A stretch of 32,000 bases of DNA, taken from the NCBI GenBank assembly GCA_019056805.1, contig DXJG01000009.1, positions 126,015 through 158,014 on the forward strand, read 5' to 3'. Positions 1 through 26,066 of the stretch are shown one piece after another. The notes below the pieces were generated by a model. It worked only from the letters and a program-made list of their open reading frames with translations, did not search any database and was not told the DNA's origin. The DNA is from Candidatus Baldrarchaeota archaeon. GTDB lineage: Archaea > Asgardarchaeota > Baldrarchaeia > Baldrarchaeales > DXJG01. Position numbers and translations under genes: made by a program. Each line of letters opens with the position of its first letter. Position 1 is the first letter of the stretch.

Positions 1-1
1 A

Positions 2-256
2 TCCTTCATGATACTAATGCAAATACCCATAATCGAAACCGCAGATCAAGCTTATAGAGCATTTGCAGCTGGAATATCTATCGGATTAGCTGCCCTAGGT
101 GCGGGTTTGGGAGTAGGATATTCGGGAGCTGCTATGTCTGGAGCTATAACGGAGCGTCCTGAAGCTTTCACCAAAAGCTTAATTTCCGTCGTTTTGGCAG
201 AGGCATTGGCCATTTACGGGCTTCTAATATCCTTCATGATACTAATGCAAATATAA
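2..256 (+). CDS. atpK: A/V-type ATP synthase proteolipid subunit c (K), 5'-truncated by the window; apparently the last hairpin of a multi-hairpin fusion
   Basis: Gly-rich TM1 GISIGLAALGAGLGVG, loop ITERPEAF, TM2 with ion-binding Glu (LAEALAIYG). The frame is open from base 2 and starts with SFMILMQI, identical to its own C-terminus. Confidence 0.92.
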   Translation, partial: SFMILMQIPIIETADQAYRAFAAGISIGLAALGAGLGVGYSGAAMSGAITERPEAFTKSLISVVLAEALAIYGLLISFMILMQI

Positions 257-336
257 TACGAAAAGTAGTTTTCCTCCATTATTTTTAACTATTTATGTAT
301 AGAAATTATAGAAATTTCGAATAAGTTTTCCATTCA

Positions 337-546
337 TCATCTTTTTCTACTTTTTATTATTCCAGCCACATAAAAAAGATGAAGCCACATAATAAAAGTT
401 CCAACAAGAGTACCCACCATGGTACCAAGTATTTCGTTCCCAGATTGACGACCAATTATATATCCAACAGCAGCAAAAATAACAATATCAAGTACAATAC
501 CAGAATATTTAAAAAGATCACCCCAGGTAGGCCCTTCCTTACTCAT
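337..546 (-). CDS. Small 2-TM membrane protein, AtpZ/AtpI (ATPase_gene1)-like
   Basis: 69 aa, two hydrophobic helices (AAVGYIIGR...ILGTMVGTLVG) and a basic tail. It lies directly downstream of ATPase subunit C on the same strand. Family resemblance is by eye only. Confidence 0.55.
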   Translation of the reverse strand: MSKEGPTWGDLFKYSGIVLDIVIFAAVGYIIGRQSGNEILGTMVGTLVGTFIMWLHLFYVAGIIKSRKR

Positions 547-586
547 AGTAATTACGCCCTAAATAGTCGTTATTAGTATACTTTTA

Positions 587-1651
587 TTATTCCTTTTGTA
601 TTAAATATTTTCTTATATGAACTGGTATTATTCTTTCTTCCTTCCCCACAACAATTGTTTTCAGATTTTTTATCTCAAACCACTTTAAATTAAGATAGCA
701 AAGTATAGTGCCTATCTGGAACGGATAACCATAGCCTGCCTTTTTACTAGCTTCATAGATAAGTTTATCAAGCTCCACTTCAATTCCTGTTAAAAGATCC
801 TTCTTTTCATATTTCCTTAATACATCATGTAAAATCGAATCATACGGATGAACGGCTAGTGTTTCAACAACTTCGCTAACCGATTTTGCTTCTAAACTCT
901 TCCGTAAGATTTCATCCCTTAGTCTGTAATTTACCCTGAGTAATAACTTTTGAATGGTTAAATGATCCAGCCCTAAAAGTTTTCCCCTCAATAATATTTT
1001 GATATTTATTGAATCTATTTCTACTCCCACTACACGTCTTGATACTCGTTTATCAAGACCACCCATATTGTCCTTGATATATTTCCAAATTTCCTCAAAT
1101 GAAACTCTATCAACAGCTACTTCAAGCGGTAAAATGTTTCGGGTTTCTTCATAATATCTCCAATTCTCCTCTAATGCCTTTCTAAAGATTCTAATGGGGA
1201 TATTTTCTACCATTTCCTTTAGATCCTTTTTCTTTAATAGTTCTTCACAAACTGGTCTAGTAAAAACACTAACTGGTATTATATACCGCATTGCTTCTTC
1301 TAATGGTAAGTTTGCAACTTTTGTTCTCAAAAGAGTTTTCAATGTTCTAGCTTCAAATTTCATGCGAATTTTATTTAAAAACTCTTTTACATCTGATGGA
1401 GAAGATCTATAGAGTGCGCTAAATGTTTCTATAAAATCTTCAGAAAAAACTCTATCCAAAATTTCTGAATTTATTTGTTCAAAAGGAAATGCCACTAGTT
1501 TTGGACCATAGGGACTCTGTTCCAGTAGTCTTACCATTGTTTGGAAACTTTCAGCACCAATTAGGGAATCTATAGCCTCTCTAGTAAGTAACTTACCCAT
1601 CATTCCCCTAACTTTTGCATTTATATAAGCATATTTTGATACCTTACCCAC
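587..1651 (-). CDS. atpC: A/V-type ATP synthase subunit C (V0 d homolog)
   Basis: YAYINAKVRGM N-terminus, EIDSINIKILLRGK, and C-terminal YLNLKWFEIKNLKTIVVGK; 354 aa; GTG start after a GGTGA SD. Confidence 0.9.
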   Translation of the reverse strand: MGKVSKYAYINAKVRGMMGKLLTREAIDSLIGAESFQTMVRLLEQSPYGPKLVAFPFEQINSEILDRVFSEDFIETFSALYRSSPSDVKEFLNKIRMKFEARTLKTLLRTKVANLPLEEAMRYIIPVSVFTRPVCEELLKKKDLKEMVENIPIRIFRKALEENWRYYEETRNILPLEVAVDRVSFEEIWKYIKDNMGGLDKRVSRRVVGVEIDSINIKILLRGKLLGLDHLTIQKLLLRVNYRLRDEILRKSLEAKSVSEVVETLAVHPYDSILHDVLRKYEKKDLLTGIEVELDKLIYEASKKAGYGYPFQIGTILCYLNLKWFEIKNLKTIVVGKEERIIPVHIRKYLIQKE

Positions 1652-1705: not shown

Positions 1706-3202
1706 TTACATTTTGAGTACAGCTTCTGCAGCTTTTTCAACTACTTCTATCGCTGTCCTTGGCCATATTCCTATGAAGATTATCTGTATAGTCAGGATGA
1801 CTATGGGTATGAGTATCGATATTGGTGCCTCTTTTACGTGTTCCATTTCTTTGCTTGGCTCAGCGAATAGTATGATGTGAATTAGTCTCAAATAATAGAC
1901 TACTGAGAAAGCACTGTTGATAAGAGTTAATGCAGCAAGTACTAATTGTCCGCCTACGACGGCTCCCCATATAATCATAAACTTAGATACAAATCCACTT
2001 AATCCTGGAACTCCTGCAATAGCTAAGCATCCCATGAAGAAGCAAAATGCGGTAATAGGCATCTTTCTGCCTATTCCTTTAAGTTCTTCTAGGTTTCTAG
2101 TACCCAATTCGTGGATGAAAGCCCCTGCGCAAAGGAATAACATCCCTTTCATTAACGAATGGTTAAGTACATGAAGAAGTCCTCCAGCTACACCTATCAC
2201 AGCTGCTGTTTCACCGACTCCATTCATCATTCCTACAGCTAAACCTGCAAAAATGTATCCTATGTTCACTATGCTAGAGTATGCTAGCAATCGTTTAATG
2301 TCCTCTTGGAGCAACGCCATAATGTTACCTACGGTCATGGTTAGAACGGCAAAGACGGCAACTATTGTCCCATAATCCAATACCGTAACTGGGAAAGCAA
2401 GAAGTAGTACACGTAAAATACCGTAAACACCGTTTTTGATAACTACTCCTGAAAGCATAGCACTAATTGAGCTTGGCGCTGCGGGGTGTGCATCTGGTAG
2501 CCAGGTGTGCAGCGGTACTATTGACGCCTTCACACCAAATCCGATTATTAGCATACCCACTATTAGATACAACGATGGATCTGTTTTTGCGACTTGTAAA
2601 GCTTGATGGACAGCTTCGTAGCTAAGAGTTCCAGTAAGCCCGTAGATGAGTGATATAGCGTACAGTAACGTAGCAGAGCCGAAGGCTGACATTACGAGGT
2701 ATTTAAAGCCTGCTTCTACAGGTTCCCATGATTCTTTTCGGAAGGAGACAAGGGCATAGCTTGAAACGCTCATTAATTCCCAAGCAACAAAGAGCGTGAA
2801 TAGATCGCCTGCATATACTACTAAATTCATTCCGCCGATTAAGGCTAGTAGAAGTGCATAGTATTTGTCAAGACCAGTGTCTTTCTCCATATATGCGATA
2901 CTATATATTGTTACTAGGAAACCTAGGTTACTGAAGACAAGGGACATAAACCAACTTAACATATCAACTCTAAGGCAAGCCCCACCTGGAGGCTCAAAGA
3001 GGTAATGAAATGTTATTACACCTTGTTGGGATACAAGTTGATAAAAGTATATTACCGATGCTATGGTTCCCAGTGCCACTAGAGCCGCTAGATATCCTGT
3101 GACTTTTTCAACACCTGCTTTTCTAAGTAATATACCGAGTAGTGCAATTATAATTGCTCCTGCAAACGGTATTAATAGGGGTAACAATATTTCCTGTATC
3201 AT
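1706..3202 (-). CDS. nuoN: Antiporter-like proton-pumping subunit (NuoN/MrpD-like) of the membrane-bound hydrogenase
   Basis: Polytopic, with WELMSVSSY (Glu), GVKASIVPLHTWLPDAH (Lys), SGVVIKNG (Lys), IKRLLAYSSI and GFVSKF. Confidence 0.85.
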   Translation of the reverse strand: MIQEILLPLLIPFAGAIIIALLGILLRKAGVEKVTGYLAALVALGTIASVIYFYQLVSQQGVITFHYLFEPPGGACLRVDMLSWFMSLVFSNLGFLVTIYSIAYMEKDTGLDKYYALLLALIGGMNLVVYAGDLFTLFVAWELMSVSSYALVSFRKESWEPVEAGFKYLVMSAFGSATLLYAISLIYGLTGTLSYEAVHQALQVAKTDPSLYLIVGMLIIGFGVKASIVPLHTWLPDAHPAAPSSISAMLSGVVIKNGVYGILRVLLLAFPVTVLDYGTIVAVFAVLTMTVGNIMALLQEDIKRLLAYSSIVNIGYIFAGLAVGMMNGVGETAAVIGVAGGLLHVLNHSLMKGMLFLCAGAFIHELGTRNLEELKGIGRKMPITAFCFFMGCLAIAGVPGLSGFVSKFMIIWGAVVGGQLVLAALTLINSAFSVVYYLRLIHIILFAEPSKEMEHVKEAPISILIPIVILTIQIIFIGIWPRTAIEVVEKAAEAVLKM

Positions 3203-3205
3203 TTT

Positions 3206-4690
3206 TCACCCACCGATCAGTCTTTCTATTTCTTCAGCAGCTGGAATTAATATTCTTAATACAAGATCTGGATAGAAGCCTAAGAGAACTGCAAGGAAAG
3301 CTAGAATCGCCATAGGAGCCAACATGGTTAAAGGCGGTTCTTTAACATTTTCAAACTCTTCTCTCGGCGGTCCGAAGAACACTCTTCTTATCATCCATAG
3401 TATGTAACCAGCAGTTATTACTGTTGAAATTACAGCAAGCGCTGCAATTAAGTAATGTCCTGATGCGAAGGCTCCTGTGAATATTAGAAACTCGCTGACG
3501 AAACCATTGAGAGGCGGGGTTCCTGCTATTGATAACCCAGCAATGAGTGTTATTGTTGCAGTTATCGGCATTTTTCCTGCTAATCCTCCGAGTTTATCCA
3601 TATCTCTACCCTTTATTGGATCGATTTGATGCATTAGAACTCCTGCTACCATGAAGAGAAGCCCTTTACATATAGCGTGGTTTACTATGTGAAACATTGA
3701 ACCAACTATTCCATACTTTGTAGCTGCTGCTAATCCTAGGAACATGTAACCCATTTGTGATATACTTGAACATGCAAATAATCTCTTGAGATCCTTCTGA
3801 GCTAGAGCTAGTACTCCTCCATAAATCATAGTTACGACAGCTATTCCCATAAACACCGTTGTGTAAATTACAAATATAGTTCCAAAGAAGGTTAGAAGAA
3901 TTCTGGCAACTGCGTAGGTTCCACATTCGATCATAACACCTGAAAGAATAACACTTATCGGGGTTGGAGCTTCTGCGTGTGCATCTGGCAACCAGTTATG
4001 CAACGGGAACAATGCCATTTTTACTGCGAATCCGAGCATAAACAGAATTACTATTATCTTAAGGGTTGATGCTGGAGCTGCTGCTATACCATTAACCATT
4101 TCAGCCGCATATAGATCGAATGTTGCCGTTAAGTTCCATGTAGCTGCGATACCAAGAATTATACAAATAGCGCCTAAGTGGGTAAACATGAAGTATTTGA
4201 ATGCTATTAGTTGAGCCTTTTCTGATGTTCCCCAGCGAGCAATTAGCAACCATGATGGAATTAACATTAATTCCCAGAAGATATAGAACTGAATTAGATT
4301 AGTTGCTAGAACAACACCAACCATACCTGCTATGTAAATGAGTAAAAGCGCGAAATAAAGTTCCTGATTATGTTCATGTGACATGTATCCTATGGAGTAT
4401 AAAGTAGCAAGTGTGCACAACAGTAATATTATCCCTGCAATTGGTGTACTCAAATTGTCTGCTCGTAATCCAAATGTTAATCCGATGATTCCAGCCCATG
4501 AGTACTCCTCTACATATAGACCTGTCTCAAGAACGGTAGGCACCACGCTTATCGAGAATATTGCCAGGGATAGAAAAGAGAGGATAAAGGCTAACCATCC
4601 TGCAGCCTTCGTCGATCCCTTACCTACGGCATATACTATTGGTGCGCCAATAATAAGCAACACAACCATGATTAAGAGCGGACCACTCAT
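3206..4690 (-). CDS. nuoM: Antiporter-like subunit (NuoM-like)
   Basis: FWELMLIP, FAVKMALFPLHNWLPDAHAEAP, DLKRLFACSSISQMG and NGFVSEF (the NuoM-type TM12 Glu). Confidence 0.88.
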   Translation of the reverse strand: MSGPLLIMVVLLIIGAPIVYAVGKGSTKAAGWLAFILSFLSLAIFSISVVPTVLETGLYVEEYSWAGIIGLTFGLRADNLSTPIAGIILLLCTLATLYSIGYMSHEHNQELYFALLLIYIAGMVGVVLATNLIQFYIFWELMLIPSWLLIARWGTSEKAQLIAFKYFMFTHLGAICIILGIAATWNLTATFDLYAAEMVNGIAAAPASTLKIIVILFMLGFAVKMALFPLHNWLPDAHAEAPTPISVILSGVMIECGTYAVARILLTFFGTIFVIYTTVFMGIAVVTMIYGGVLALAQKDLKRLFACSSISQMGYMFLGLAAATKYGIVGSMFHIVNHAICKGLLFMVAGVLMHQIDPIKGRDMDKLGGLAGKMPITATITLIAGLSIAGTPPLNGFVSEFLIFTGAFASGHYLIAALAVISTVITAGYILWMIRRVFFGPPREEFENVKEPPLTMLAPMAILAFLAVLLGFYPDLVLRILIPAAEEIERLIGG

Positions 4691-4702
4691 TTTTTTCCCT
4701 CC

Positions 4703-6805
4703 TTAACCGAAGAGTAATAGTAATAGTATCGCAATTACACCCAGCATTACAGCGATCATGTTATAGTTTAGATCACCAGTATGTGTTTTTCTGAATGCCT
4801 GGCTAAAACTACGTACAACCCATGCTAACGCATAGTTAAACCTGTCAACGATGCCCTGTTCAAAGAACCTGTAAATTCCCAGACTTAATTTTATGAATCC
4901 GCCAACTATCACCTTTGTGTAAAAGTCATTGATATACCATCTGTTGTAGAAGAATTTGTGTACGGCACGGAAGAATCCATGCTTCTCCAAGAACTCTCCT
5001 GGATCAATTTTATGACTCCAATAGAAGTAATATGCAGGAATTCCTCCAAGGGCAATGGCACCTAGTGTCATAAGGATTGTTGGTGAAAACAATAGTTCTG
5101 CGAATATTTCCATTGATACGTGAACTTCCACTCCTTTCCAGCCTTTGAACATGAATACTTGGAACATTGGAGCGAACAAACCGCCTATAACTGATATTGC
5201 AGCTAGAACCGCTAGTGGAACCCACATCACTGGAGGAGCCTCATGTATATGTTCTCCTTTATGTTCTCTCTCCTTGATGTATTCGCTTTCAGGCCATAGG
5301 AATATTATAGCTATCATCCTAATGCTATAGAATAAGGTTATTGCGGCAGTTATTACTGCCATAAATAACAGTATGTATCCAGTCGTACCAATGAAGGCAT
5401 ATCCATGGGCATATGCTTCGTTAGCGAGTATCCATGCAGCATCAAATATAGTTTCTTTAGACCAAAAGCCGCTGAAGGGTGGTATACCGGCGAGTGATAA
5501 AGCTCCGATGAGCATACATTTGTATGTTATTGGCATATATTGTTTTAAGCCGCCCATTTCAAACATGTCTTTTGTTTCAGTAGCATGTAGAATCGCACCA
5601 GCTGAGAGGAATAAGAGGGCTTTAAAGACTGCATGTGACATAAGGTGGAAGGTTCCTGCATAGTATCCTTCAGCTATTTCTCCGGCAACGTAGCCTATTA
5701 GTCCTCCTACTCCAAGTGCAAGCATCATATATCCTATCTGTGAAATTGTTGAATATGCTAATACCTTTTTAACTTCTCTTGCCACCATTCCCATCGTTGC
5801 AGCTAGAAATGCTGTAAACGCACCTATACAAGCAACTATTAAGGAAAACGTGTATAATGCGCCAGTGAAGTTAATTAATTTGAATACTTCAACAAAGATG
5901 GGTAATACTCGTGCTACTAGGTAAACACCGGCTTTTACCATTGTTGCTGCATGTATGAGTGCAGAAACTGTTGTTGGACCTGCCATAGCTTCTGGTAACC
6001 ATACGTGCAATGGGAATTGAGCACTCTTACCTATAGGTCCACCGAAAAGTAGTATTATAGTTGGTATTAGTAGTCCACTTGCTACAAGTAATCTGGCCCA
6101 TTCTATATATTCCTCGCTTCTAAGTTCAAGAAAGTTGAATGTCGGGTGTCCTGCTTTCCAGGTGAAAACATAAATTGTTAAAATTGCTATTAGAAGGGCT
6201 ACATCGCCTACACGAGTTGTGATGAATGCTTTCATTCCACACATAGCATTATATTCGCCTTCAGTTTTATAATCTGGAACCGGGCTGGGATCTTTTTTCT
6301 TATGCCAGAACCCTATTAGGGCGTACGAACACATTCCGACAATTTCCCAGCCTATGAACATTTGTAGAAAGTTGTTTGCCATAACTAGGAGAACCATTCC
6401 CCCGATAAAGAAGTTCTTGAAGAACCAGTACCTTGTTAAATCAGGATCGCCATGCATGTATCCTAATGCGTACACCATGATTAGAGCACCGAGACCACTG
6501 GCAATATTAGCCATAAAGACACTTAGAGGGTCAACGAGTACTCCTACTTCTATTCCTAACCCTGGGATCCATTCTATTTTCGATTCATATGGAATACTAG
6601 TACTAAGTACCTCTCCAGTGAACCAGTTAACGACTTTCCCCGCGAAGATATCGGGCACCATTGAAAGAGCGAATATAAAGCCAACGATGCTGAACAGAAC
6701 AGCCCCATAATCTCTTACTTTCGGATGGATTTTTGCTAATAAAGGTGTTAATAATGCGCCTATTACAGGAATTCCCCAACATAGCCACGGTGCTAGAGGC
6801 AGCAT
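4703..6805 (-). CDS. nuoL: Antiporter-like subunit (NuoL/MrpA-like)
   Basis: 700 aa; FIGWEIVG, GKSAQFPLHVWLPEAMAGPTTVSALIHAATMVKAGVYL, HAVFKALLF, FWSKE, and a long C-terminal extension (HTGDLNYN). Confidence 0.92.
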   Translation of the reverse strand: MLPLAPWLCWGIPVIGALLTPLLAKIHPKVRDYGAVLFSIVGFIFALSMVPDIFAGKVVNWFTGEVLSTSIPYESKIEWIPGLGIEVGVLVDPLSVFMANIASGLGALIMVYALGYMHGDPDLTRYWFFKNFFIGGMVLLVMANNFLQMFIGWEIVGMCSYALIGFWHKKKDPSPVPDYKTEGEYNAMCGMKAFITTRVGDVALLIAILTIYVFTWKAGHPTFNFLELRSEEYIEWARLLVASGLLIPTIILLFGGPIGKSAQFPLHVWLPEAMAGPTTVSALIHAATMVKAGVYLVARVLPIFVEVFKLINFTGALYTFSLIVACIGAFTAFLAATMGMVAREVKKVLAYSTISQIGYMMLALGVGGLIGYVAGEIAEGYYAGTFHLMSHAVFKALLFLSAGAILHATETKDMFEMGGLKQYMPITYKCMLIGALSLAGIPPFSGFWSKETIFDAAWILANEAYAHGYAFIGTTGYILLFMAVITAAITLFYSIRMIAIIFLWPESEYIKEREHKGEHIHEAPPVMWVPLAVLAAISVIGGLFAPMFQVFMFKGWKGVEVHVSMEIFAELLFSPTILMTLGAIALGGIPAYYFYWSHKIDPGEFLEKHGFFRAVHKFFYNRWYINDFYTKVIVGGFIKLSLGIYRFFEQGIVDRFNYALAWVVRSFSQAFRKTHTGDLNYNMIAVMLGVIAILLLLLFG

Positions 6806-6820
6806 GACCTAACAGCCCCC

Positions 6821-7129
6821 TTACCATTTTAATCTTCTCATTTTTCTAACATCTAAGGTTCCGTAGTGTCGATATATGAGGAGAGTAAGCGACAATGCTA
6901 GAGCTATGACTCCCGCACCAACACCGATTGAAATTATAACAAAGCTACGAGCTAAAGGATCCAGACCTACAGTTGTAGTGCTAAGTGCAATAAAGTTGAG
7001 ATGAGCAGCGTTTATCAATATTTCAATGCCGATTATGAGTTTTATGATATTTCTTTTCGTTGCTAAACAGTAGAGTCCTATTAGATAAAGTATTGCAGCT
7101 GCACCTAAGTACCAATTTAATCCTATCAT
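6821..7129 (-). CDS. nuoK: NuoK/MrpC-like membrane subunit
   Basis: 102 aa, 3 TM helices, IGLYCL...RNIIKLIIGIEIL motif; overlaps the upstream gene's stop. Confidence 0.88.
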   Translation of the reverse strand: MIGLNWYLGAAAILYLIGLYCLATKRNIIKLIIGIEILINAAHLNFIALSTTTVGLDPLARSFVIISIGVGAGVIALALSLTLLIYRHYGTLDVRKMRRLKW

Positions 7130-7671
7130 TCCTTCTCTCCCCTTTCTCTTCTAAATAATGTAGCTACACCCAAACCAGCTACAAATAATGCCATTGCTTG
7201 AATTAATACATCTATTATTCTCACTTGCCAAACAGATTGTGCAACATTTTCCAGAATATTCTGGAAGGGTTTAAGCACAGGGAGATTTAAAGCCTCACCG
7301 TAAACAAAATGAAGGCCAACGTAGCTTGCAATAAACACTTGAACCATAAGAATGGCAATGATTATGAAAAGAAGTCCTCCAGATACCTCTGTAGCAATGT
7401 CATACTTCATTTCTTCCCTTTTTCCCTTTTCACCTGGGGACATTAAACTTAACACTGCCAAGAAAAGAACTATGACAGCACCGGCATACACTAGAAGGTT
7501 AATAACCGCTACGTAAGGTGCGTAGAGCACGTAAAAAATTATACTTAGAACCGTGCTCATTAGACCGAGTGAAACAACTGCATACGCTAATTTTTTTAAT
7601 TCAACGGCTAAAATTGCAAACAGGATTAAGAATCCAATCAACGCAACTTCGATCATAAATTCCAAGCTCAT
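7126..7671 (-). CDS. nuoJ: NuoJ-like membrane subunit
   Basis: APYVAVINLLVYAGAVIVLFL is typical of NuoJ. The GAGGT SD fits the ATG at 7671 better than the ORF-track start at 7677. Confidence 0.85.
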   Translation of the reverse strand: MSLEFMIEVALIGFLILFAILAVELKKLAYAVVSLGLMSTVLSIIFYVLYAPYVAVINLLVYAGAVIVLFLAVLSLMSPGEKGKREEMKYDIATEVSGGLLFIIIAILMVQVFIASYVGLHFVYGEALNLPVLKPFQNILENVAQSVWQVRIIDVLIQAMALFVAGLGVATLFRRERGEKE

Positions 7672-7677
7672 TTCCAT

Positions 7678-7834
7678 ACCTCGCTGGATTTGCTGTCGCG
7701 TTGTGCAGTGTCTTATTGTAATTATACCCTAAAAAGTTTTCGCCCTAATACTTAAAAGGGTAGAGTTAAAACACAATTTAGTACCCTAAGTTCTCCCTAA
7801 GGACTCGTATTAAAGATTAACGCAGGGGGTTAAA
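7678..7834. promoter_or_regulatory. Divergent promoter region between the nuoJ-N block and ATPase H/E, with repeated CCCTAA and an AGGGTA-N19-TACCCT inverted repeat
   Basis: CCCTAA at 7727, 7743, 7784 and 7795; TACCCT at 7725 and 7782; AGGGTA at 7757; AT-rich TATA-like tracts. Function is inferred. Confidence 0.45.
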
Positions 7835-8149
7835 TTGGCTAACAAACTCATAGAAATAATAAGTGAAGTTGAAACAAAAGCAAAAGAGATAATTAGCGAA
7901 GCAGAGAAAAAAGCAGAAGAAATAATCAACCAAGCAAAGAAAGAAGCAGAGAATATCAGGGAAAAAGTCTTAAAAGATGCAGAAATCGAAGCAGAAAAAG
8001 TTTGGAAAGATATCTTGACAAGGGCGGAAGCGGAAGCAAAGAAAATAGTTGAAAAAGTAGAAAAAGACATAGAAAAATTAAGAACAGAAGCCCGCGAACA
8101 ATTTGATGAAGCTGTAAAATTAATCATGGATACTATAACTGGGGTGTGA
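7835..8149 (+). CDS. atpH: A/V-type ATP synthase peripheral stalk subunit H/G
   Basis: 104 aa E/K/A-rich coiled coil with about 11-residue periodicity (EAEKKAEEIINQAKKEAENI); directly upstream of subunit E; TTG start after a GGGGGT SD. Confidence 0.8.
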   Translation: MANKLIEIISEVETKAKEIISEAEKKAEEIINQAKKEAENIREKVLKDAEIEAEKVWKDILTRAEAEAKKIVEKVEKDIEKLRTEAREQFDEAVKLIMDTITGV

Positions 8150-8153
8150 TTAA

Positions 8154-8771
8154 TTGAACGAACGGGTAGAAAAAATTGAGGAAATTATAATTAACGAAGC
8201 AAAAGGAAAAGCTGAAAACATTATCGCCAAAGCAAAAGAAGAGGCAAAGAAGATTCTTGATGAAGCTGAACAGGAAGCTAAAAAAGAAGCAGAAGAAATA
8301 ATTAACAAGAAGAAAGCAGACGCTGAAGCCCAAGCTCGCCGTATACTATCAGAAGCAAAATTGGAAGCAAGACTAAAGATACTTAATGCCAAAGAACAGT
8401 TAATATCAGAGGCTTTTGACACTGCCATTGAAAAGTTAAAAGAATTTTCGCAAAGTACACAATATAAAACCGCATTGGAAAATCTCATTAAAGACGCCGC
8501 AATAATTATAAGAGGCGGAGACTTAGAGGTTCTACTTCCAGAAAACACAAACGTGAATCTTGATTTATCAAAAATAGCAAAGGAAGTTGAAAATCAAACC
8601 GGAGTAAAAACTTCACTTAGCATATCCAACGAAACGATTAGAAGCATCGGTGGCGTAATAGTCAGATCAAAAGACCAATTTTTAACCGTGGATAACACTT
8701 TTGAAGCAAGACTTGAAAGGCTACGAGAACAACTTCGTGTAAATGTAGCCAATTTACTCTTTAAAACATAA
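8154..8771 (+). CDS. atpE: A/V-type ATP synthase subunit E
   Basis: N-terminal coiled coil plus C-terminal IGGVIVRS...VDNTFEARLE motif. Confidence 0.93.
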   Translation: MNERVEKIEEIIINEAKGKAENIIAKAKEEAKKILDEAEQEAKKEAEEIINKKKADAEAQARRILSEAKLEARLKILNAKEQLISEAFDTAIEKLKEFSQSTQYKTALENLIKDAAIIIRGGDLEVLLPENTNVNLDLSKIAKEVENQTGVKTSLSISNETIRSIGGVIVRSKDQFLTVDNTFEARLERLREQLRVNVANLLFKT

Positions 8772-9028
8772 TTTTCATCCCTTATTTATCCTTAATTAAC
8801 TTTCTTTTATACTCCGAATCTAAAATAATCTAAATCAAACAATCAAACATCAGTTTTACTCCATATCATTATTATAGCATAACATAAAATAATCAATAGC
8901 ATTATGATGAAATTATAATATTACATGAAATCTTAACTATCTTGCCATAAGAAGCATTTCATTCACAATTTTACATGGTGATAAGCAGAAAGTAGAACAA
9001 GGTCGATGTATCGAATATGGGTGTTAGA

Positions 9029-9973
9029 ATGTCTAGCAAGTCTTGTAGATTTTGTTCTAAACCTGCTATCCTGAGAATACGGTACTCCGGGCTTCTAGTA
9101 TGTAAAAAGCATTTTATAGAGTACTTTGAAAAACGAGTGTTTAGAACAATTCAAAAATATAAAATGATACGAGAGGGAGACAAGGTTTTACTTGGACTTA
9201 GTGGGGGAAAAGACAGCATAGCACTTCTCCATATATTTACAAACCTACAAAATACTTTGAAATTTGAAATTCTTCCCCTCTTTATAGATTTAGGAATTCA
9301 ACTTAATAATTACTCTCAGGTTAGCAGCGAAATAGTAAAAAGAAATTGCAAAAAACTTGGACTAGATGTTATCATCGTAAAAATAAAAGACGAATACGGT
9401 TTTTCGATAGATAATGTTTCCGCCAAGAAATTAAGGAGACCTATATGTTCTGTTTGTGGATTAATTAAACGATATGTACTTAACAGAAAAACCCTTGAGT
9501 TATCAGTTAACAAGGTTGCTACTGGTCATAACCTTAATGATGAAGCAACTTTTCTTCTACAAAACATTATAAACACAGACGTTGACTTGTTATCCAAATT
9601 TGGACCTATTCAACCGACACTTGAAGGACTATTTGTAAGCAGGATAAAACCATTTTTCGAAACATATGAAGATGATATATCACTATATGCGACCCTTAAA
9701 AACCTAGAATACGTTGACACAACTTGCCCATACGCCAAAGATGCTTCGACATTGCAACTTAAAACAATTATAGCAAACCTTGAAAATATAAGACCCGGCG
9801 CAGCCCTGGCTATGGTTAAAGGATTCTACAAAAAAATTAAGCCTTTACTTCAAAGTATTAGAGAAGAAAGAGAAGAAAAAATAACTAAATGCAAAATATG
9901 TGGTATGCCAACATCTATGGAAATTTGCTCATTTTGCCGATTGAGAGACAGAATCGCTAAAACAAATTTTTAA
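9029..9973 (+). CDS. ttuA: TtuA/Ncs6(Ctu1)-family tRNA 2-thiolation protein (PP-loop ATPase)
   Basis: N-terminal CxxC..CxxH Zn finger, SGGKDS PP-loop, CSVCG, TGHNLND, CPY, and C-terminal CxxC..CxxC. The ATG at 9029 follows a GGTG SD (track start 9017). Confidence 0.88.
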   Translation: MSSKSCRFCSKPAILRIRYSGLLVCKKHFIEYFEKRVFRTIQKYKMIREGDKVLLGLSGGKDSIALLHIFTNLQNTLKFEILPLFIDLGIQLNNYSQVSSEIVKRNCKKLGLDVIIVKIKDEYGFSIDNVSAKKLRRPICSVCGLIKRYVLNRKTLELSVNKVATGHNLNDEATFLLQNIINTDVDLLSKFGPIQPTLEGLFVSRIKPFFETYEDDISLYATLKNLEYVDTTCPYAKDASTLQLKTIIANLENIRPGAALAMVKGFYKKIKPLLQSIREEREEKITKCKICGMPTSMEICSFCRLRDRIAKTNF

Positions 9974-10251
9974 CCATTTTATAAACGCGATTTTTCTTAA
10001 TATCACTTGTGTTATGATTTAGGATACAAGATAATTAAGAAAACGCGGTTTTTAGATGACGTTTATATTTTTTTTCTTTATACTTTTTCTTTATACACAA
10101 AAGGGAAAAATATAATTATAGTGATTGAAAAAGATGCTATGTCATCTAAGTTAAACTTAATAAGGTACACGTTGTTGAATCGATACACTTTTATTAGATG
10201 AATGAAGTTAGTAGTTGGTCTGAGTGTTAGGATTGCTGGGGGTTTAGCAAC

Positions 10252-10566
10252 ATGACCTCTCTAGTAACTTGGATGGGACTAGTAATTTGTGTACTCATAG
10301 CGGTTGTACTTTACCTTTTAGGGAAAAAAATAGCGCCTCCAAGCGAAGAAAACCCTGAAAAAAGAGCACCCTATGCATGCGGTGAAGATTTTCCACCAGA
10401 AGAGGTCCAAGTATATATTCACAATTTCCACTACATTGCTTTCTTCGTGATTTTTGAAGTCGCGGTTCTTCTTCTGGCATTGTCCATGTATTCCTTCTCC
10501 TTCTTCGCTGTGGCGTTATACGCAATTGTTGTTTTTCTAGCACTTTCTCAAATACCAAGGTGGTAG
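10252..10566 (+). CDS. nuoA: NuoA-like membrane subunit
   Basis: 3 TM helices; loop PYACGE; FFVIFEV matches the NuoA FIIFDVE pattern. Confidence 0.8.
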   Translation: MTSLVTWMGLVICVLIAVVLYLLGKKIAPPSEENPEKRAPYACGEDFPPEEVQVYIHNFHYIAFFVIFEVAVLLLALSMYSFSFFAVALYAIVVFLALSQIPRW

Positions 10567-10568
10567 AA

Positions 10569-11003
10569 ATGGCAGTGTTAAGTAAACTTGTAAAATGGGC
10601 GAGAATAAAGTCTCCTTGGATAATTCATTACAACAGTGGTGGTTGCAACGCATGTGATATTGAAGTTGTTGCTGCATTAACCCCTAGATTTGACGTTGAA
10701 CGTTTCGGTATTCTTCTTAAAGGTAGCCCTAGACACGCTGATGTACTAGTTGTCACTGGGCCAGTAACTAGGCAAACTAAAAATAGACTAATTAGAATCT
10801 ATAATCAAATGGCTGATCCAAAATTTGTACTAGCTGTAGGTACCTGCACTATAACTGGCGGAGTATTTCGTGGAGCCTACGGTGTACTGGGCGGAGTAGA
10901 CGAAGCAATACCAGTTGACGTATTTGTTCCTGGATGTCCACCCAAGCCAGAAGCCATAATTCAAGGAGTTGTAAAACTATTAGAAAAATTGCAGAAAACC
11001 TAA
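10569..11003 (+). CDS. nuoB: Group 4 [NiFe]-hydrogenase small subunit (NuoB homolog)
   Basis: SGGCNACDIE (CxxC), SPRHADVLVVTG, AVGTCTITGG, PGCPPKP. Confidence 0.92.
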   Translation: MAVLSKLVKWARIKSPWIIHYNSGGCNACDIEVVAALTPRFDVERFGILLKGSPRHADVLVVTGPVTRQTKNRLIRIYNQMADPKFVLAVGTCTITGGVFRGAYGVLGGVDEAIPVDVFVPGCPPKPEAIIQGVVKLLEKLQKT

Positions 11004-11017
11004 AATAGGAGGTAAAC

Positions 11018-11491
11018 GTGTTGAGCGAAAGTTTAGAAGTTGAAAAAGAAATCGTTGACGACTTCAAAAAAATTCTAGGGGCAGACTTTATAGACGGACA
11101 AGTTCAACGTAAGGGACGAGTCTACATAAAAGTGAAAACAGACGCTTACAAAAAAGCAATAGAACATGCAGTAGAGAAATGGAATACCTACCATCTATCA
11201 ACCATAAGTGGCGTTGACTTGGGAGAAAACATAGAGCTTCTATATCACTTACTTGATCCAAAAGCCAAAATTACCATTACAATAAGAACAGAGATTCCTA
11301 AATCCGACCCAAAGATTGGAACAGTTTCAGATATACTCCCATCTGCCTTAGTATATGAGAGAGAAGTATACGATCTCTTAGGCGTAATATTTACCGGTCA
11401 CCCAGATCTTAGACGTTTAGTCTTACCTGAAGATTTCCCTGAAGGAGTTCACCCACTTAGAAAGGAGTGGAAACCTGAGGAGGTTAAATAG
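11018..11491 (+). CDS. nuoC: NuoC-like hydrogenase subunit
   Basis: HLSTISGVD and YEREVYDLLGVIFTGHPDLRRLVLPEDFPEGVHPLRKE. Confidence 0.92.
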   Translation: MLSESLEVEKEIVDDFKKILGADFIDGQVQRKGRVYIKVKTDAYKKAIEHAVEKWNTYHLSTISGVDLGENIELLYHLLDPKAKITITIRTEIPKSDPKIGTVSDILPSALVYEREVYDLLGVIFTGHPDLRRLVLPEDFPEGVHPLRKEWKPEEVK

Positions 11492-11493
11492 AA

Positions 11494-12711
11494 ATGAGCG
11501 TTGAAAAAAGAATTTTTAAAATACCTGTTGGCCCACAGCATCCAGCTCTAAAGGAATTTGAACACTTTGTATTTACTGTTGATGGAGAGAGGGTCATAGA
11601 TGTAGGTTTTAGAATAGGTTACACTCACAGAGGCATCGAAAAACTAGCTGAATCAAAAACATATATTCAAAACCTTTATCTCTGTGAAAGAATTTGCGGT
11701 ATTTGTAGTGCGGCTCACCAAGGCTGCTATGCTCAAACCGTTGAAGAACTTGCTGATATTACTGCTCCCCCCAGAGGGACATATATTCGAACATTAATTT
11801 GGGAATTGGAACGTATTCACAGCCACTTATTATGGCTTGGTGTTGCAGCACACGAAATAGGATTTGACACATTATTTATGTTAGTTTGGCGTGATCGAGA
11901 AGTAGTTATGGACCTATTAGAAATGATTTCAGGAAACAGAGTCAACTATGCGATGAGTACTATAGGAGGAGTTCGTAGAGACATATCTGATGAATTAAAA
12001 CATAAAATACTGAAAGGACTAGATATACTTGAGGAAAGAACAAAATATTACAAAGAAGTTTGTATGAAAGAACAAACAATCCTAGCTAGAGCTGCAAATG
12101 TAGGTATATTAACACGAGAACAAGCATTAAAGCTCAACGCGGTCGGTCCAACTGCCCGAGCATCTGGAGTAGACGTAGATCTACGTAGAGACGATCCTTA
12201 TGGAGCATATGATGAAGTACCTTTTAACGTAATAGTTTATGATACATGTGACGTACTTGCCAGAGTTCTAGTGCGAGTTGACGAAACCTTTGAATGTATT
12301 AACATGTGCCGCTGGCTTCTTGAAAACTTACCAGAAGGAGACATAAGAACTAAATTCGCCCGTAAAATTGCCGAAAACGAAGTTGTTGGTAGAGTTGAAG
12401 CACCAAGAGGCGAACTATTCTACTACATAAAGTCTAATGGCACCGATAAACCTGAAAGACTTAAAGTTCGAACACCCACGCTAGCTAACATACTCCCAGT
12501 TTGTGAAATGCTTAAAGGAGGATATATCGCTGACATACCCATTGTACTCGCTGGAATTGATCCATGCTTTGCATGTATGGATCGTGCGCTCTTTATAGAC
12601 GAGAACTCAGAAAAGAAATGGGTGTGGAGTAGGGAACAATTGAGAATATATTCAATTAAGTGGTATAAGGAACATGGCAATGAGGTGGTGAGGGAAAGAT
12701 GGAAACAATAG
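11494..12711 (+). CDS. Group 4 [NiFe]-hydrogenase large subunit (NuoD/EchE/MbhL homolog)
   Basis: GPQHPAL, GYTHRGIEK; intact L1 motif ERICGICSAAH and L2 motif DPCFACMDR, giving four Ni/Fe-ligating Cys; EAPRGE. Confidence 0.93.
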   Translation: MSVEKRIFKIPVGPQHPALKEFEHFVFTVDGERVIDVGFRIGYTHRGIEKLAESKTYIQNLYLCERICGICSAAHQGCYAQTVEELADITAPPRGTYIRTLIWELERIHSHLLWLGVAAHEIGFDTLFMLVWRDREVVMDLLEMISGNRVNYAMSTIGGVRRDISDELKHKILKGLDILEERTKYYKEVCMKEQTILARAANVGILTREQALKLNAVGPTARASGVDVDLRRDDPYGAYDEVPFNVIVYDTCDVLARVLVRVDETFECINMCRWLLENLPEGDIRTKFARKIAENEVVGRVEAPRGELFYYIKSNGTDKPERLKVRTPTLANILPVCEMLKGGYIADIPIVLAGIDPCFACMDRALFIDENSEKKWVWSREQLRIYSIKWYKEHGNEVVRERWKQ

Positions 12712-13694
12712 AGTTACTTATTCTTCTCCTTAAATTTATAGTATTTCCCGGAGCCATTTTCTGTATAGCATACGGTTTCTTCCTAGAGTGGTTCGATAGA
12801 AAACTTTACGCTAAATTCCAAAACAGAATCGGACCTTTACTCACAGGACCAAAAGGGTTACTTCAACCATTTGCAGACTTCGTTAAATTATTAGCAAAAG
12901 AGGATATTACACCAGTTGGTGCTGATAAACTCGGGTTCACACTCACTCCCCTACTAACTGTCGCTGTTTCACTGTTCACATTACTGTTCATTCCAATCCA
13001 CTCATTAACAGGAGTACTAAGTTTACCAGGAGATGTTCTACTTGTTTTGTTCATCTCAACCGTATTTGGACTGCTAATCATGTTTGCTGGATACTTCTCT
13101 GGTAATAGATTCTCCATGGTAGGAACAGAGAGAACTGGGCTTCAATTTGTTGGATATGAGATACCCTTTGCTCTTTCCGTTATTTCTGTAGCAGCCGCCG
13201 CGAGAAGCTTAGAAATCACCAACATAGTTAATTACCAAGTCAACATACTCGGTTTACCTTTAATAGTCTTCACTCCCATAGCATTTGCCATATATCTTAT
13301 AAGCGCACTAGCAAAACTAGAAAAAATACCATTTGACATCCCAGAAGCGGAAACAGAGATCGTAGGTGGATGGCAAGTAGAATACAGTGGAAAGAAACTA
13401 GCATTCTTCAGACTTGCCACAGATTTAAAAATGGTCTTTGTCTCAGGACTTGCCGCAGCACTGTTTCTCGGGGGACCATATGGCCCTTCAATTCCAGGCT
13501 TAGAACCAATATTCTACACTATCTGGTTTATCATAAAAACATTAATTGTAATGTTCATATTAAGTAACCTTAGATCGCTTTTCGCCAGATACAGAATAGA
13601 CCAAGTAGTTCATGGATTCTGGAAATACATGGTACCATTAGCAGTATTACAAATCTTAATTGTTGAAGGTCTCATATTTATGGGGGTAATCTAA
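12699..13694 (+). CDS. nuoH: NuoH-like membrane anchor subunit
   Basis: RKLYAKFQNRIGP, QPFADFVKLLAKE, KIPFDIPEAETEIVGGWQVEYSG. Confidence 0.93.
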   Translation: METIELLILLLKFIVFPGAIFCIAYGFFLEWFDRKLYAKFQNRIGPLLTGPKGLLQPFADFVKLLAKEDITPVGADKLGFTLTPLLTVAVSLFTLLFIPIHSLTGVLSLPGDVLLVLFISTVFGLLIMFAGYFSGNRFSMVGTERTGLQFVGYEIPFALSVISVAAAARSLEITNIVNYQVNILGLPLIVFTPIAFAIYLISALAKLEKIPFDIPEAETEIVGGWQVEYSGKKLAFFRLATDLKMVFVSGLAAALFLGGPYGPSIPGLEPIFYTIWFIIKTLIVMFILSNLRSLFARYRIDQVVHGFWKYMVPLAVLQILIVEGLIFMGVI

Positions 13695-13695
13695 A

Positions 13696-14049
13696 ATGCC
13701 GCTTCCTGGAGCTATGGAAAAAGAATTAATAAAACTTATAGCAAAAAAACCTGCTACAGAAATGTATCCTTTTATTAAAGTAGAACCTCCAGAAGGATAT
13801 CGTGGAAAAATTTCGTTCGACATAGAAAAATGTATCGGCTGTGGTCTTTGCGCCAAAGACTGTCCAGCTGGAGCCATTGAAATGGTAGAAGATGAAAGAA
13901 CAAAACTCAAAAAACGACCAAAATTCATCTATAGTAGATGCCTATTCTGCGCACAGTGCGAAGAATCCTGTCCACGTAAAGCCATAAAACTAACAAAAGA
14001 ATTCGAGCTAGCAGATTACAACAAAGAAGCCATGGTAATCGATGTCTAA
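13696..14049 (+). CDS. nuoI: NuoI-like 2x[4Fe-4S] subunit
   Basis: MYPF...YRGK, CIGCGLCAKDCP and CLFCAQCEESCP. Confidence 0.92.
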   Translation: MPLPGAMEKELIKLIAKKPATEMYPFIKVEPPEGYRGKISFDIEKCIGCGLCAKDCPAGAIEMVEDERTKLKKRPKFIYSRCLFCAQCEESCPRKAIKLTKEFELADYNKEAMVIDV

Positions 14050-14147: not shown

Positions 14148-15521
14148 CTAGTACTTCTTAAGTACTTCTTCTTCTGGTGGTGGCGGCGGAATTAAGCCTT
14201 CCTTCATTAAGAGACGAACAGATTCTCGAGCATTTTTGATAATGGTAGTAGCCCTTTCCCATAATTCTTGCTTACTTGGTTTAACTCTAGCTACTCCTTC
14301 TTTAATGGATTGTAGTGCACAAGCAACAGCTTCTCTCGGATAAACTTCCCACTCTTCCATCGTAGGTACAATGTAATCTTCATGAATACCTTTTTCTTCA
14401 GCAAATTCAGCCAACGCTTTTGCAGCTGCAATACACATATCATCAGTGATTGTCCTAGCTTTTACATCTAAAACTCCTCTAAATATGCCTGGGAATCCAA
14501 GTGAGTTGTTAATCTGGTTTGGAAAGTCTGATCTACCTGTTGCAACGATTCTAGCTCCTGCCTCTTTTGCTTCCCAAGGCCATATTTCAGGTATAGGATT
14601 CGCACATGCAAACACTATGGCATCATCTGCCATACTACTAACCCATTCAGGCTTTATTACACCGGGCCCAGGTTGAGACATGGCTATACAGACATCTACA
14701 CCTTTCATTGCCTCTGCAATTCCACCTTCCCTGCCTTCAGCATTAGTTTTAACACACATCTCCCATTTCCATGGATTTTCGTCCTTCCTTGCTTCAACGT
14801 CCTTCCTATTTGAATGCAATATTCCCTTACTATCAACCATGAAGATGTTTCCAGGTTTAACTCCTGCCTTTATAAGAACAACTGCAGTTCTATAGTTAGC
14901 TGCACCAGCTCCAATCATTGCAACCGTAATCTCGTCCATTTTCTTACCTACTATTTTTAGAGCATTTATTAACCCGGCGAGTGCTACTGTTGCAGTCCCT
15001 TGCTGATCATCATGCCAAACAGGAATATTAAGCTCTTCACGAGCTTTTTCAAGTATATGGAAACATTTTGGCTTCGCTATATCTTCTAAGTTAATTCCAC
15101 CAAATGTTGGTTCAAGCCATTTAAGCGCCGTTATGATTTCATCAGGATCTTTTGTTCCCAAACAGATTGGAAAAGCATCGACTCCACCTAAATATTTGAA
15201 AAGTATTGCTTTACCTTCCATAACAGGCATGGCAGCTTCAGGGCCAATATCACCCAGTCCAAGTACCCTAGTTCCATCACTTACAACTGCCACAAAATTC
15301 CACCTATTAGTATATTCAAAAGACAATTCTGGATCTTTGTGGATTTCTCTACATGGCGCAGCAACCCCAGGAGTGTACCAGATTGCGAAATCGAACATAT
15401 TTCTTATAACACACTTTGGCATTACTTGCAGTTTTCCTTCGTAGAATGGATGGTATGCCATTGCCAATTTTGCTGGTTTTTTAGCTTTCTCAAGAAGTTC
15501 CTCAACTGTTAATTTCTTCAT
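14148..15521 (-). CDS. NAD(P)-dependent malic enzyme
   Basis: YTPGVAAPC, VSDGTRVLGLGDIGP, PVMEGKA, INLEDI, HDDQQGTA, GAGAA, ATGRSDFPNQINN. Confidence 0.95.
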   Translation of the reverse strand: MKKLTVEELLEKAKKPAKLAMAYHPFYEGKLQVMPKCVIRNMFDFAIWYTPGVAAPCREIHKDPELSFEYTNRWNFVAVVSDGTRVLGLGDIGPEAAMPVMEGKAILFKYLGGVDAFPICLGTKDPDEIITALKWLEPTFGGINLEDIAKPKCFHILEKAREELNIPVWHDDQQGTATVALAGLINALKIVGKKMDEITVAMIGAGAANYRTAVVLIKAGVKPGNIFMVDSKGILHSNRKDVEARKDENPWKWEMCVKTNAEGREGGIAEAMKGVDVCIAMSQPGPGVIKPEWVSSMADDAIVFACANPIPEIWPWEAKEAGARIVATGRSDFPNQINNSLGFPGIFRGVLDVKARTITDDMCIAAAKALAEFAEEKGIHEDYIVPTMEEWEVYPREAVACALQSIKEGVARVKPSKQELWERATTIIKNARESVRLLMKEGLIPPPPPEEEVLKKY

Positions 15522-26057: not shown

Positions 26058-26066
26058 TACCACCGC

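Follow-up and report, generated by a model that had tools for sequence, protein, structure and literature searches.

What is encoded where homologues of all eleven core subunits of complex I stand together with the nickel-iron ligands of a hydrogenase, and do these subunits belong to one machine or to two? The question is raised by a stretch of 32,000 nucleotides (the window in what follows) from the genome of Candidatus Baldrarchaeota archaeon, assembly GCA_019056805.1, contig DXJG01000009.1, positions 126,015 to 158,014. Homologues of NuoA, B, C, D, H, I, J, K, L, M and N are arranged there in two divergent blocks, J/K/L/M/N on the minus strand (7677 to 1706) and A/B/C/D/H/I on the plus strand (10252-14049). 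The two transcription units point away from each other, and the roughly 2.6 kb between them hold atpH, atpE and a gene for a PP-loop ATPase. It is proposed here, with a probability of roughly 0.78, that both blocks together encode one Hfo-type membrane complex, a “Fpo-like 11-subunit [NiFe] hydrogenase” of the heterogeneous HydDB group 4g, which would be ferredoxin-linked, reversible and ion-translocating. An enzyme of this type has already been published. Hfo was described in 2021 (Loh, Herve & Brune, 2021; PMC7886697), and Asgard versions were presented in 2024 (Valentin-Alvarado et al., 2024, PMC11291895; Appler et al., 2024, preprint, bioRxiv 10.1101/2024.07.04.601786); the biology was read correctly from the locus, but it was known before.

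The preliminary description of the window had listed the eleven homologues, both NiFe motifs in the D homologue, a hydrogenase-type CxxC instead of the tandem CC of NuoB in the B homologue, and three antiporter subunits. It had also warned that related group 4 enzymes are reported in Asgard genomes, so that novelty needed checking. Pfam and NCBIfam scans, alignments with HycE and with HycG/NuoB, and a tree that groups the three antiporter-like proteins with NuoL, NuoM and NuoN agree with this account, and the warning was apt. The gene set was given correctly, while the interruption of the divergent blocks by ATP synthase genes was not stressed. In the present analysis, Pfam and NCBIfam scans were made of the open reading frames (ORFs) of the window, Pfam matches being counted when above the curated cut-offs. 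Channel residues are given in E. coli numbering, and residue identity was read from alignments. All genome-wide negatives are bounded by the genome, which is 1.92 Mb in size and 91% complete.

Catalytic head

The nature of the head can be read from an alignment of the large subunit (the D homologue) with E. coli HycE, HyfG and NuoCD. Motifs L1 (ERICGICSAAH) and L2 (DPCFACMDR) match HycE/HyfG column for column, whereas NuoCD reads RIEYLGG and DFVMSDVDR in these columns. All four Ni-Fe cysteines and the histidine of L1 are present, and both motifs are kept in all 38 other group-4 homologues of the tree set (not counting the outgroup, E. coli NuoD). The N-terminal loop KEFEH resembles DEPGH of HycE, with the conserved catalytic glutamate, and NuoCD has AHG there. 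The histidine of this AHG and the tyrosine of RIEYLGG are residues that we take to belong to the quinone site of NuoCD. Neither of these positions is conserved in the large subunit, the tyrosine of NuoCD aligning with a position of the cysteine motif, and the long loop insertion of NuoCD is missing. The arginine of L2 is followed by a 43-residue tail, homologous to the tail of HycE that is cleaved by HycI. Comparison with solved structures gave 318.8 bits for MbhL (6cfw_L), 260.7 for HycE and 219.5 for Thermus Nqo4.

The iron-sulfur subunits give a consistent picture. In the small subunit (the B homologue) cysteines are found within GGCNACDIE (CxxC), GTCTITGG and GCPP, and all four align with those of HycG, as they do with HyfI; the tandem CC of NuoB (SCC at the first site) is absent. 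The NuoI homologue contains two complete CxxCxxCxxxCP motifs, although its matches to the NuoI, HycF and HyfH models are below cut-off. The ligands of the Ni-Fe site and those for three [4Fe-4S] clusters are intact, and, judged by its motifs aligned to HycE, the D homologue is taken to hold a real [NiFe] site.

Membrane body

The membrane subunits point to complex I. In a maximum-likelihood tree of antiporter-like subunits, the three proteins of the window group with E. coli NuoL (100/99), NuoM (99/97) and NuoN (100/99), respectively. HyfD comes out as sister to the NuoL group, and other positions in the tree are taken by HycC, HyfB, HyfF and the antiporters of Hdr-linked hydrogenases. Profile matches agree with this grouping. 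The NuoL model TIGR01974 covers positions 9-628 of 630 above cut-off, NCBIfam NuoL models being matched to their last residues, and the NuoM homologue gives 353.7 bits with TIGR01972 (NDH_I_M), also above cut-off. When compared to solved structures, L matches cyanobacterial NdhF and bacterial NuoL over the full length with 309-243 bits, and MbhH with 124 bits. For H, 164 bits were obtained with E. coli NuoH and 83 bits with MbhM.

Hydropathy analysis of L revealed a non-hydrophobic stretch of about 85 residues (590-676) between transmembrane helix (TM) 15 and a terminal TM at 677-700, and this arrangement is read as the lateral-helix design. An AlphaFold2 model of L (predicted TM-score 0.78) is confident in its core, and its top Foldseek matches are NdhF, NuoL and ND5. 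Residues 619-700, comprising the lateral helix and the last TM, are helical in the model with a predicted local distance difference test score below 50; the geometry proposed for the lateral helix rests, for this reason, on profile coverage and hydropathy and not on the model alone.

Most of the residues expected along the channels are also retained. L keeps E144, D178, K229, H254, H334, H338, K342 and K399 in the alignment with E. coli, M keeps E144, K234, H348 and the NuoM-specific glutamate of TM12 (E407), and N keeps E133, K217, H224, K247, K295 and K395. E36 of NuoK, Y59 of NuoJ and K46 of NuoA are kept as well, and D79 of NuoA is replaced by glutamate. Nine of the 11 conserved charged positions of NuoH are identical and the other two show conservative changes. 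The membrane arm, as predicted from these data, is the complex I set, consisting of NuoL with its lateral helix, NuoM and NuoN together with NuoH, A, J and K. The whole is a mosaic in which D is nearest to MbhL/HycE, L to NdhF/NuoL and H to NuoH, the Mbh counterparts of L and H scoring far lower.

Two gene blocks and one probable complex

Genes inside each block overlap or sit at most about 15 nucleotides apart, as expected for operons. The separation of the blocks is no assembly artefact, since contigs from a second, independent study run from nuoK through nuoJ and the intergenic region into atpH and are identical to the window there. It is also shared by close relatives: two metagenome-assembled genomes with large subunits 91-92% identical (L005 and L006) show exactly the same division, with atpH, atpE and the PP-loop gene in between. 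All eleven genes are contiguous on one strand in Ca. Asgardarchaeum abyssi (L007; large subunit 88% identical), in the order J-K-L-M-N-A-B-C-D-H-I, the atpH, atpE and PP-loop genes being absent from between the blocks. The same divergent pair as in the window is found in a Bathyarchaeia locus (L056), flanked by hycI on one side and by atpF, G, E and A on the other. An Asgardarchaeia contig (L058) has a contiguous A-B-C-D-H-I-J-J'-K-L-N array, whose second antiporter groups with NuoN.

The contiguous array of Ca. Asgardarchaeum abyssi and the divergent layout in Bathyarchaeia indicate that the two blocks most likely encode one complex. Within the genome of the window, no further copy exists of A, J, K or the three PF00361 genes. 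The preliminary description had considered that the blocks could belong to different complexes, and the single array of this close relative argues for the opposite. A separate pattern was observed in relatives with two antiporters (L008, L050 and L058): they keep orthologues of NuoL and NuoN, lack NuoM specifically, and have NuoJ split in two.

Proposed mechanism, likely redox partner and direction

In the proposed mechanism, a hydrogenase head (B, C, D and I) would be mounted on a complete membrane body of complex I type (H, A, J, K, N, M and L). Reduced ferredoxin would dock on the NuoI-like subunit, and electrons would travel over three [4Fe-4S] clusters and reduce protons to H2 at the Ni-Fe site. 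The redox energy could then be relayed, by conformational and electrostatic coupling, through the E-channel of NuoH/A/J/K and the lateral helix of L, resulting in the export of H+ (possibly Na+) through N, M and L. It is assumed that the gradient is used by the A-type ATP synthase encoded by the genes that interleave with the locus. An enzyme built in this way should be reversible. A mechanism of the same kind has been put forward in the papers on Hfo and on the Asgard enzymes (Loh, Herve & Brune, 2021; Valentin-Alvarado et al., 2024; Appler et al., 2024).

The genome was searched for partners and for maturation genes. Neither NuoF (PF01512) nor FrhB/FpoF (PF04432) nor MrpG (PF03334) was found in it, MrpE, MrpF and FpoO not having been searched separately. 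The window contains no NuoEFG, formate dehydrogenase, CODH, Mrp or hyp genes according to the Pfam/NCBIfam scans, just as the preliminary description had noted. As no NADH, F420 or MrpG module was found, ferredoxin is the likely partner, and the earlier suggestion of a ferredoxin-linked enzyme gains support. The same description had named hypA-F as genes to look for and their lack as a possible objection. Matches above cut-off were obtained in the genome for hypB, hypC, hypD (two copies), hypE, hypF and a HycI-like protease, which answers the objection for all of the set except hypA.

Several points weigh against the proposed reading. The missing hypA, not found in the 91%-complete genome, is one of them. 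Another is that two residues depart from the E. coli channel pattern, E72 of NuoK being valine and K265 in the central TM8 of NuoM being glutamate. It should also be considered that the donor, the ion specificity, the stoichiometry and the direction are predictions. Moreover, the genome encodes CdhC/acetyl-CoA synthase, which would suit the reverse direction, from H2 to ferredoxin. Finally, a second hydrogenase head is encoded on contig C11 without an antiporter of its own, and for this reason the pairing of JKLMN with ABCDHI need not be exclusive. The last two points lead to two of the alternatives.

The first alternative leaves the complex as it is and turns its physiology around. ATP hydrolysis by the A-ATPase would build the gradient, and electrons would be pushed from H2 uphill to ferredoxin for the Wood-Ljungdahl pathway. 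Such a direction was proposed for Hfo in acetogenic Bathy-6 (Loh, Herve & Brune, 2021), and both the CdhC/acetyl-CoA synthase mentioned above (the only Wood-Ljungdahl component checked) and the interleaving of ATP synthase genes with hydrogenase genes are consistent with it. However, published reconstructions of Asgard metabolism prefer ferredoxin oxidation and H2 release (Valentin-Alvarado et al., 2024; Appler et al., 2024), and the sequence fixes no direction. Reverse operation as the main physiological mode is considered rather unlikely, though it is the alternative to be taken most seriously. For the Hfo-type complex proposed here, H2 evolution from ferredoxin is favoured as the main direction, in line with the Asgard literature.

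Other readings of the locus

The second group 4 [NiFe] hydrogenase of the genome lies at L004:4718-10482 (equal to G000:C11:64717-70481, minus strand), in the order orf105, NuoH, NuoI-like, NuoB, Fer4_11, orf88, CCG/HdrB-like and a NuoC-D fusion with intact L1 and L2. No antiporter-like gene (PF00361) was found in this cluster, and all three PF00361 genes of the genome are in the window. An 82%-identical Baldrarchaeota counterpart is likewise without an antiporter, and more distant relatives of the cluster, in Methanomethylicus, Odinarchaeia and Bathyarchaeia, keep one antiporter gene within it. These observations would be explained if the JKLMN arm, being its own transcription unit in the Asgardarchaeia/Baldrarchaeia lineage, were a shared module that serves either the ABCDHI head or the antiporter-less, Hdr-linked head of C11 (NuoH-I-B-HdrCB-CD). 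However, the C11 cluster encodes a NuoH of its own as well as a small membrane ORF and could represent a minimal enzyme with weak coupling or none, and in Ca. Asgardarchaeum abyssi the arm genes are contiguous with a head of the window type. The genome is, moreover, 91% complete, and head swapping is without direct evidence. Sharing of the arm is regarded as improbable. In this reading, the second head in the lineage of the window has lost an antiporter gene still kept by its relatives in Odinarchaeia, Bathyarchaeia and Methanomethylicus.

Even less credit can be given to the idea that ABCDHI forms an Ech-like hydrogenase of six subunits and JKLMN a separate cation/proton antiporter of the Mrp-like kind, as could be imagined from divergent units standing 2.6 kb apart with ATP synthase and PP-loop ATPase genes between them. 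An Mrp-like system would be at odds with the negative result for MrpG in the genome and for MrpE/F/G-type genes in the window, and with the grouping of L, M and N with NuoL, NuoM and NuoN instead of the antiporters of Hdr clusters or HycC/HyfB/HyfF. The lateral-helix region kept in L is meaningful only in an arm with several antiporters. NuoA is encoded apart from J and K, its structural partners, which belong to the other block, and the blocks themselves are contiguous in Ca. Asgardarchaeum abyssi and on the Asgardarchaeia contig and adjacent in Bathyarchaeia. The least probable reading, an Fpo/Nuo-like oxidoreductase of ferredoxin and quinone (or another carrier) that merely retains cysteines, draws on the complex-I-like membrane body and on the best NCBIfam matches of D, which are NuoD models below cut-off, and it is considered very unlikely in view of the four Ni-Fe cysteines, the L1 histidine and the catalytic glutamate loop, of KEF in place of the AHG of NuoCD, the NuoCD tyrosine falling on a Cys-motif position and the missing NuoCD loop insertion, of the protease-type C-terminal tail and hyp genes (hypA not found), and of L1 and L2 being kept in 38 of 38 other group-4 homologues in the tree set.

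Gene order and neighbouring genes

The genes and intergenic regions are collected in Table 1. The nuoJ and nuoK genes overlap by 4 nucleotides, and atpC lies 54 nucleotides downstream of nuoN on the same strand.

Table 1. Features in and around the hydrogenase locus, with positions in the window, strand and basis of the assignment.
Feature	Positions	Strand	Basis or remark
atpK	to 256	+	ORF listing, Pfam/NCBIfam
atpC (A/V-ATPase subunit C)	587-1651	-	Pfam PF01992, 212 bits; linked gene, no subunit
NuoN orthologue, 498 residues, antiporter-like	1706-3202	-	Pfam PF00361/PF00662 (Proton_antipo_M + Proton_antipo_N), tree
NuoM orthologue, 494 residues, antiporter-like	3206-4690	-	Proton_antipo_M + Proton_antipo_N; TIGR01972 NDH_I_M; tree
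NuoL orthologue, 700 residues, antiporter-like	4703-6805	-	Proton_antipo_M + Proton_antipo_N; TIGR01974; tree
NuoK homologue, 102 residues	6821-7129	-	Pfam PF00420 (Oxidored_q2), 78.5 bits
NuoJ homologue, 183 residues, unsplit	7126-7677	-	Pfam PF00499 (Oxidored_q3), 47.8 bits, plus MbhD
Divergent intergenic region nuoJ/atpH, 157 nucleotides, presumed promoters	7678-7834		sequence read
atpH-like coiled coil	7835-8149	+	intervening gene, no hydrogenase subunit
atpE	8154-8771	+	Pfam vATP-synt_E; no hydrogenase subunit
PP-loop/TtuA-like ATPase	9017-9973	+	Pfam ATP_bind_3 + TtuA_LIM_N; no hydrogenase subunit
Gap, 278 nucleotides	9974-10251		between PP-loop ATPase gene and nuoA
NuoA homologue, 104 residues	10252-10566	+	Pfam PF00507 (Oxidored_q4), 31.9 bits, above cut-off
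Hydrogenase small subunit/NuoB homologue, 147 residues	10560-11003	+	Pfam PF01058 (Oxidored_q6)
NuoC homologue, 157 residues	11018-11491	+	Pfam PF00329 (Complex1_30kDa), 108.9 bits
[NiFe] large subunit/NuoD homologue, 405 residues	11494-12711	+	Complex1_49kDa + NiFeSe_Hases
NuoH homologue, 331 residues	12699-13694	+	Pfam PF00146 (NADHdh), 302.8 bits
NuoI homologue, 117 residues, 2x[4Fe-4S] ferredoxin-like	13696-14049	+	Pfam Fer4 families; two Cys motifs
Malic enzyme	14148-15521	-	ORF listing, Pfam/NCBIfam

Three further ORFs were considered as extra subunits and rejected. The first (7810-8127, minus strand) is a low-complexity antisense of atpH and the second (8150-8548, minus strand) is antisense to atpE, neither having a significant Pfam match; the third (10007-10201, plus strand) has a sub-threshold Pfam match only. 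The intergenic region between nuoJ and atpH is nearly identical in L005 and L006. It contains an inverted repeat, CCCT-N10-AGGG, which overlaps a TTAAAA box and is a candidate regulator site common to both transcription units. The hexamer CCCTAA is present there in four copies, a cluster that is not conserved in L005 and L006 although the region is. The PP-loop/TtuA-like ATPase has an N-terminal LIM-type zinc finger and a 32%-identical paralogue on contig C6.

Genes of the A-type ATP synthase (atpI, atpK, atpC, atpH and atpE) are found around and between the blocks (window 1-1651 and 7835-8771; L064:15944-19098). In the Bathyarchaeia Hfo locus (L056:1-2309) the atpF, G, E and A genes stand directly downstream of the antiporter block, so the linkage of hydrogenase and ATP synthase spans phyla. 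Elsewhere in the genome, four genes encode a group 3b-like soluble [NiFe] hydrogenase (L063:3836-7785, equal to G000:C9:50835-54784) with Fer4_22, FAD/NAD-binding, small and large subunits, which resembles sulfhydrogenase. Genes for ESCRT-II (Vps25-like) and a Vps4 AAA ATPase lie side by side at 25383-27221 on the minus strand of the window; this pair is an Asgard hallmark and supports the Asgard assignment. The closest relatives of the genome carry the labels Baldrarchaeota, Asgardarchaeum or Odinarchaeota.

Comparison with known systems

MBH of Pyrococcus furiosus, a group 4d enzyme which is not known to have a lateral helix, resembles the proposed complex in that electron transfer from ferredoxin to H2 is coupled to ion translocation. 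Its structure (PDB 6CFW) contains the closest solved catalytic subunit. However, MBH has a single antiporter-like subunit, MbhH (PMC7886697), when compared to three in the window. It also has an Mrp-type Na+ module (MbhA-C), whereas no MrpG was found in the genome of the window. Hydrogenase 4 (Hyf) and hydrogenase 3 (Hyc, of formate hydrogenlyase) of E. coli are formate-linked enzymes. They share with the window the group 4 head and a cleavable C-terminal tail of the large subunit (Hyc, PDB 7Z0S), and Hyf has three antiporter-like subunits as well, HyfB, D and F. In the trees, however, HycE and HyfG are distant (branch about 2.1), HyfB, HyfF and HycC do not group with M or N of the window, and the window is without a formate dehydrogenase gene. 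The 11-subunit relatives of complex I without an NADH module (archaeal Fpo-like enzymes, cyanobacterial NDH-1 and bacterial Nuo11) have the same core subunits and a likely ferredoxin donor. L, M and N of the window group with NuoL, NuoM and NuoN (tested against E. coli Nuo only), and NdhF is the best solved match for L. The difference lies in the acceptor, which is quinone or methanophenazine for these enzymes, and in the Ni-Fe ligands, which they have lost and which are intact in the window.

The family itself is widespread. Close homologues of the large subunit were found in 142 of 301 sampled genomes of the phylum (E <= 1e-80), and thousands of metagenomic proteins are 60-67% identical to it. 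Asgard large subunits are not monophyletic and are interleaved with those of Thermoproteota (tree entries P0083, L009, L010 and L050), which suggests lateral transfer, very old paralogy or binning errors as possible causes. In the same tree, a Hodarchaeota large subunit nests among Thermoproteota/Bathyarchaeia, and one Njordarchaeota sequence pairs with a Nitrososphaerota one. Selenocysteine, considered for Asgard homologues with an in-frame TGA near L2, was rejected; the three cases that were read have an ordinary stop directly after DPCxSCTDR, followed by the next gene.

Among Asgard archaea, Valentin-Alvarado et al. (2024) described complex-I-like group 4 hydrogenases that have two antiporters and the lateral helix in full and are syntenic with ATP synthase, and Appler et al. 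(2024) named Asgard subgroups 4j-4q. According to the latter authors, deep-branching classes (Asgardarchaeia, Baldrarchaeia) have Mbh-like enzymes with an Hdr domain, and the enzymes of Heimdallarchaeia are complex-I-like, their arm being shorter. The locus presented here agrees with these reports in its Asgard host, NuoBCDI head, active-looking Ni-Fe site, L with full lateral helix, synteny with ATP synthase and ferredoxin as the proposed donor. It differs from the published picture in that a full L+M+N arm is carried by deep-branching genomes, namely by the genus of the window (the window, L005 and L006; G018 and G039) and by Ca. Asgardarchaeum abyssi (L007), which apparently belongs to a different family (G004). 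A full arm already present in deep-branching Asgard archaea would not fit the published stepwise change from Mbh-like to complex-I-like enzymes towards Heimdallarchaeia; this is put forward tentatively, although it is likelier than the sharing of one arm by two heads.

The closest correspondence is with Hfo, reported from genomes of Bathy-6 Bathyarchaeia and classified by HydDB as 4g; Hfo-like clusters were also reported in Pyrodictium delaneyi and Ca. Methanomethylicus (Loh, Herve & Brune, 2021). The same 11 subunits are present, L1 and L2 are retained, and FpoF/NuoEFG and the Na+ module of Mbh are both lacking. The large subunit of the window is 64-67% identical to homologues from Bathyarchaeia/Thermoproteota, and the Bathyarchaeia locus shares the divergent JK..LMN/ABCDHI layout. 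The differences concern the host, which is a deep-branching Asgard archaeon in the case of the window, the atpH, atpE and PP-loop ATPase genes that split the blocks, and the arm, in which NuoJ is unsplit and the order is J-K-L-M-N, compared to J-J'-K-N-L-M in the Bathyarchaeia locus. In the large-subunit tree the window lies near a Bathyarchaeia sequence with Hfo gene organisation, the deeper forks being unresolved with references that exclude HydDB and the authors' 4g-6 sequences. The outgroups of this tree are E. coli HycE, HyfG and NuoD only, and it cannot assign a HydDB subgroup or one of 4j-4q. The window fits Hfo in every feature tested, in a comparison made by architecture.

With a family that is published and widespread, the locus opens no new question; its value is that of a clean example from a deep-branching Asgard archaeon, tightly linked to ATP synthase genes. 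The locus suggests that the complete arm predates the loss of the Ni-Fe site and is not confined to Bathyarchaeia or Heimdallarchaeia. The compact set of 11 genes is a reasonable target for the biochemistry and structural biology of the family. Hfo-type enzymes combine the active site of a hydrogenase with a membrane arm in which L, M and N group with their complex I counterparts, and no living model stands closer to the step from a proton-reducing hydrogenase to complex I.

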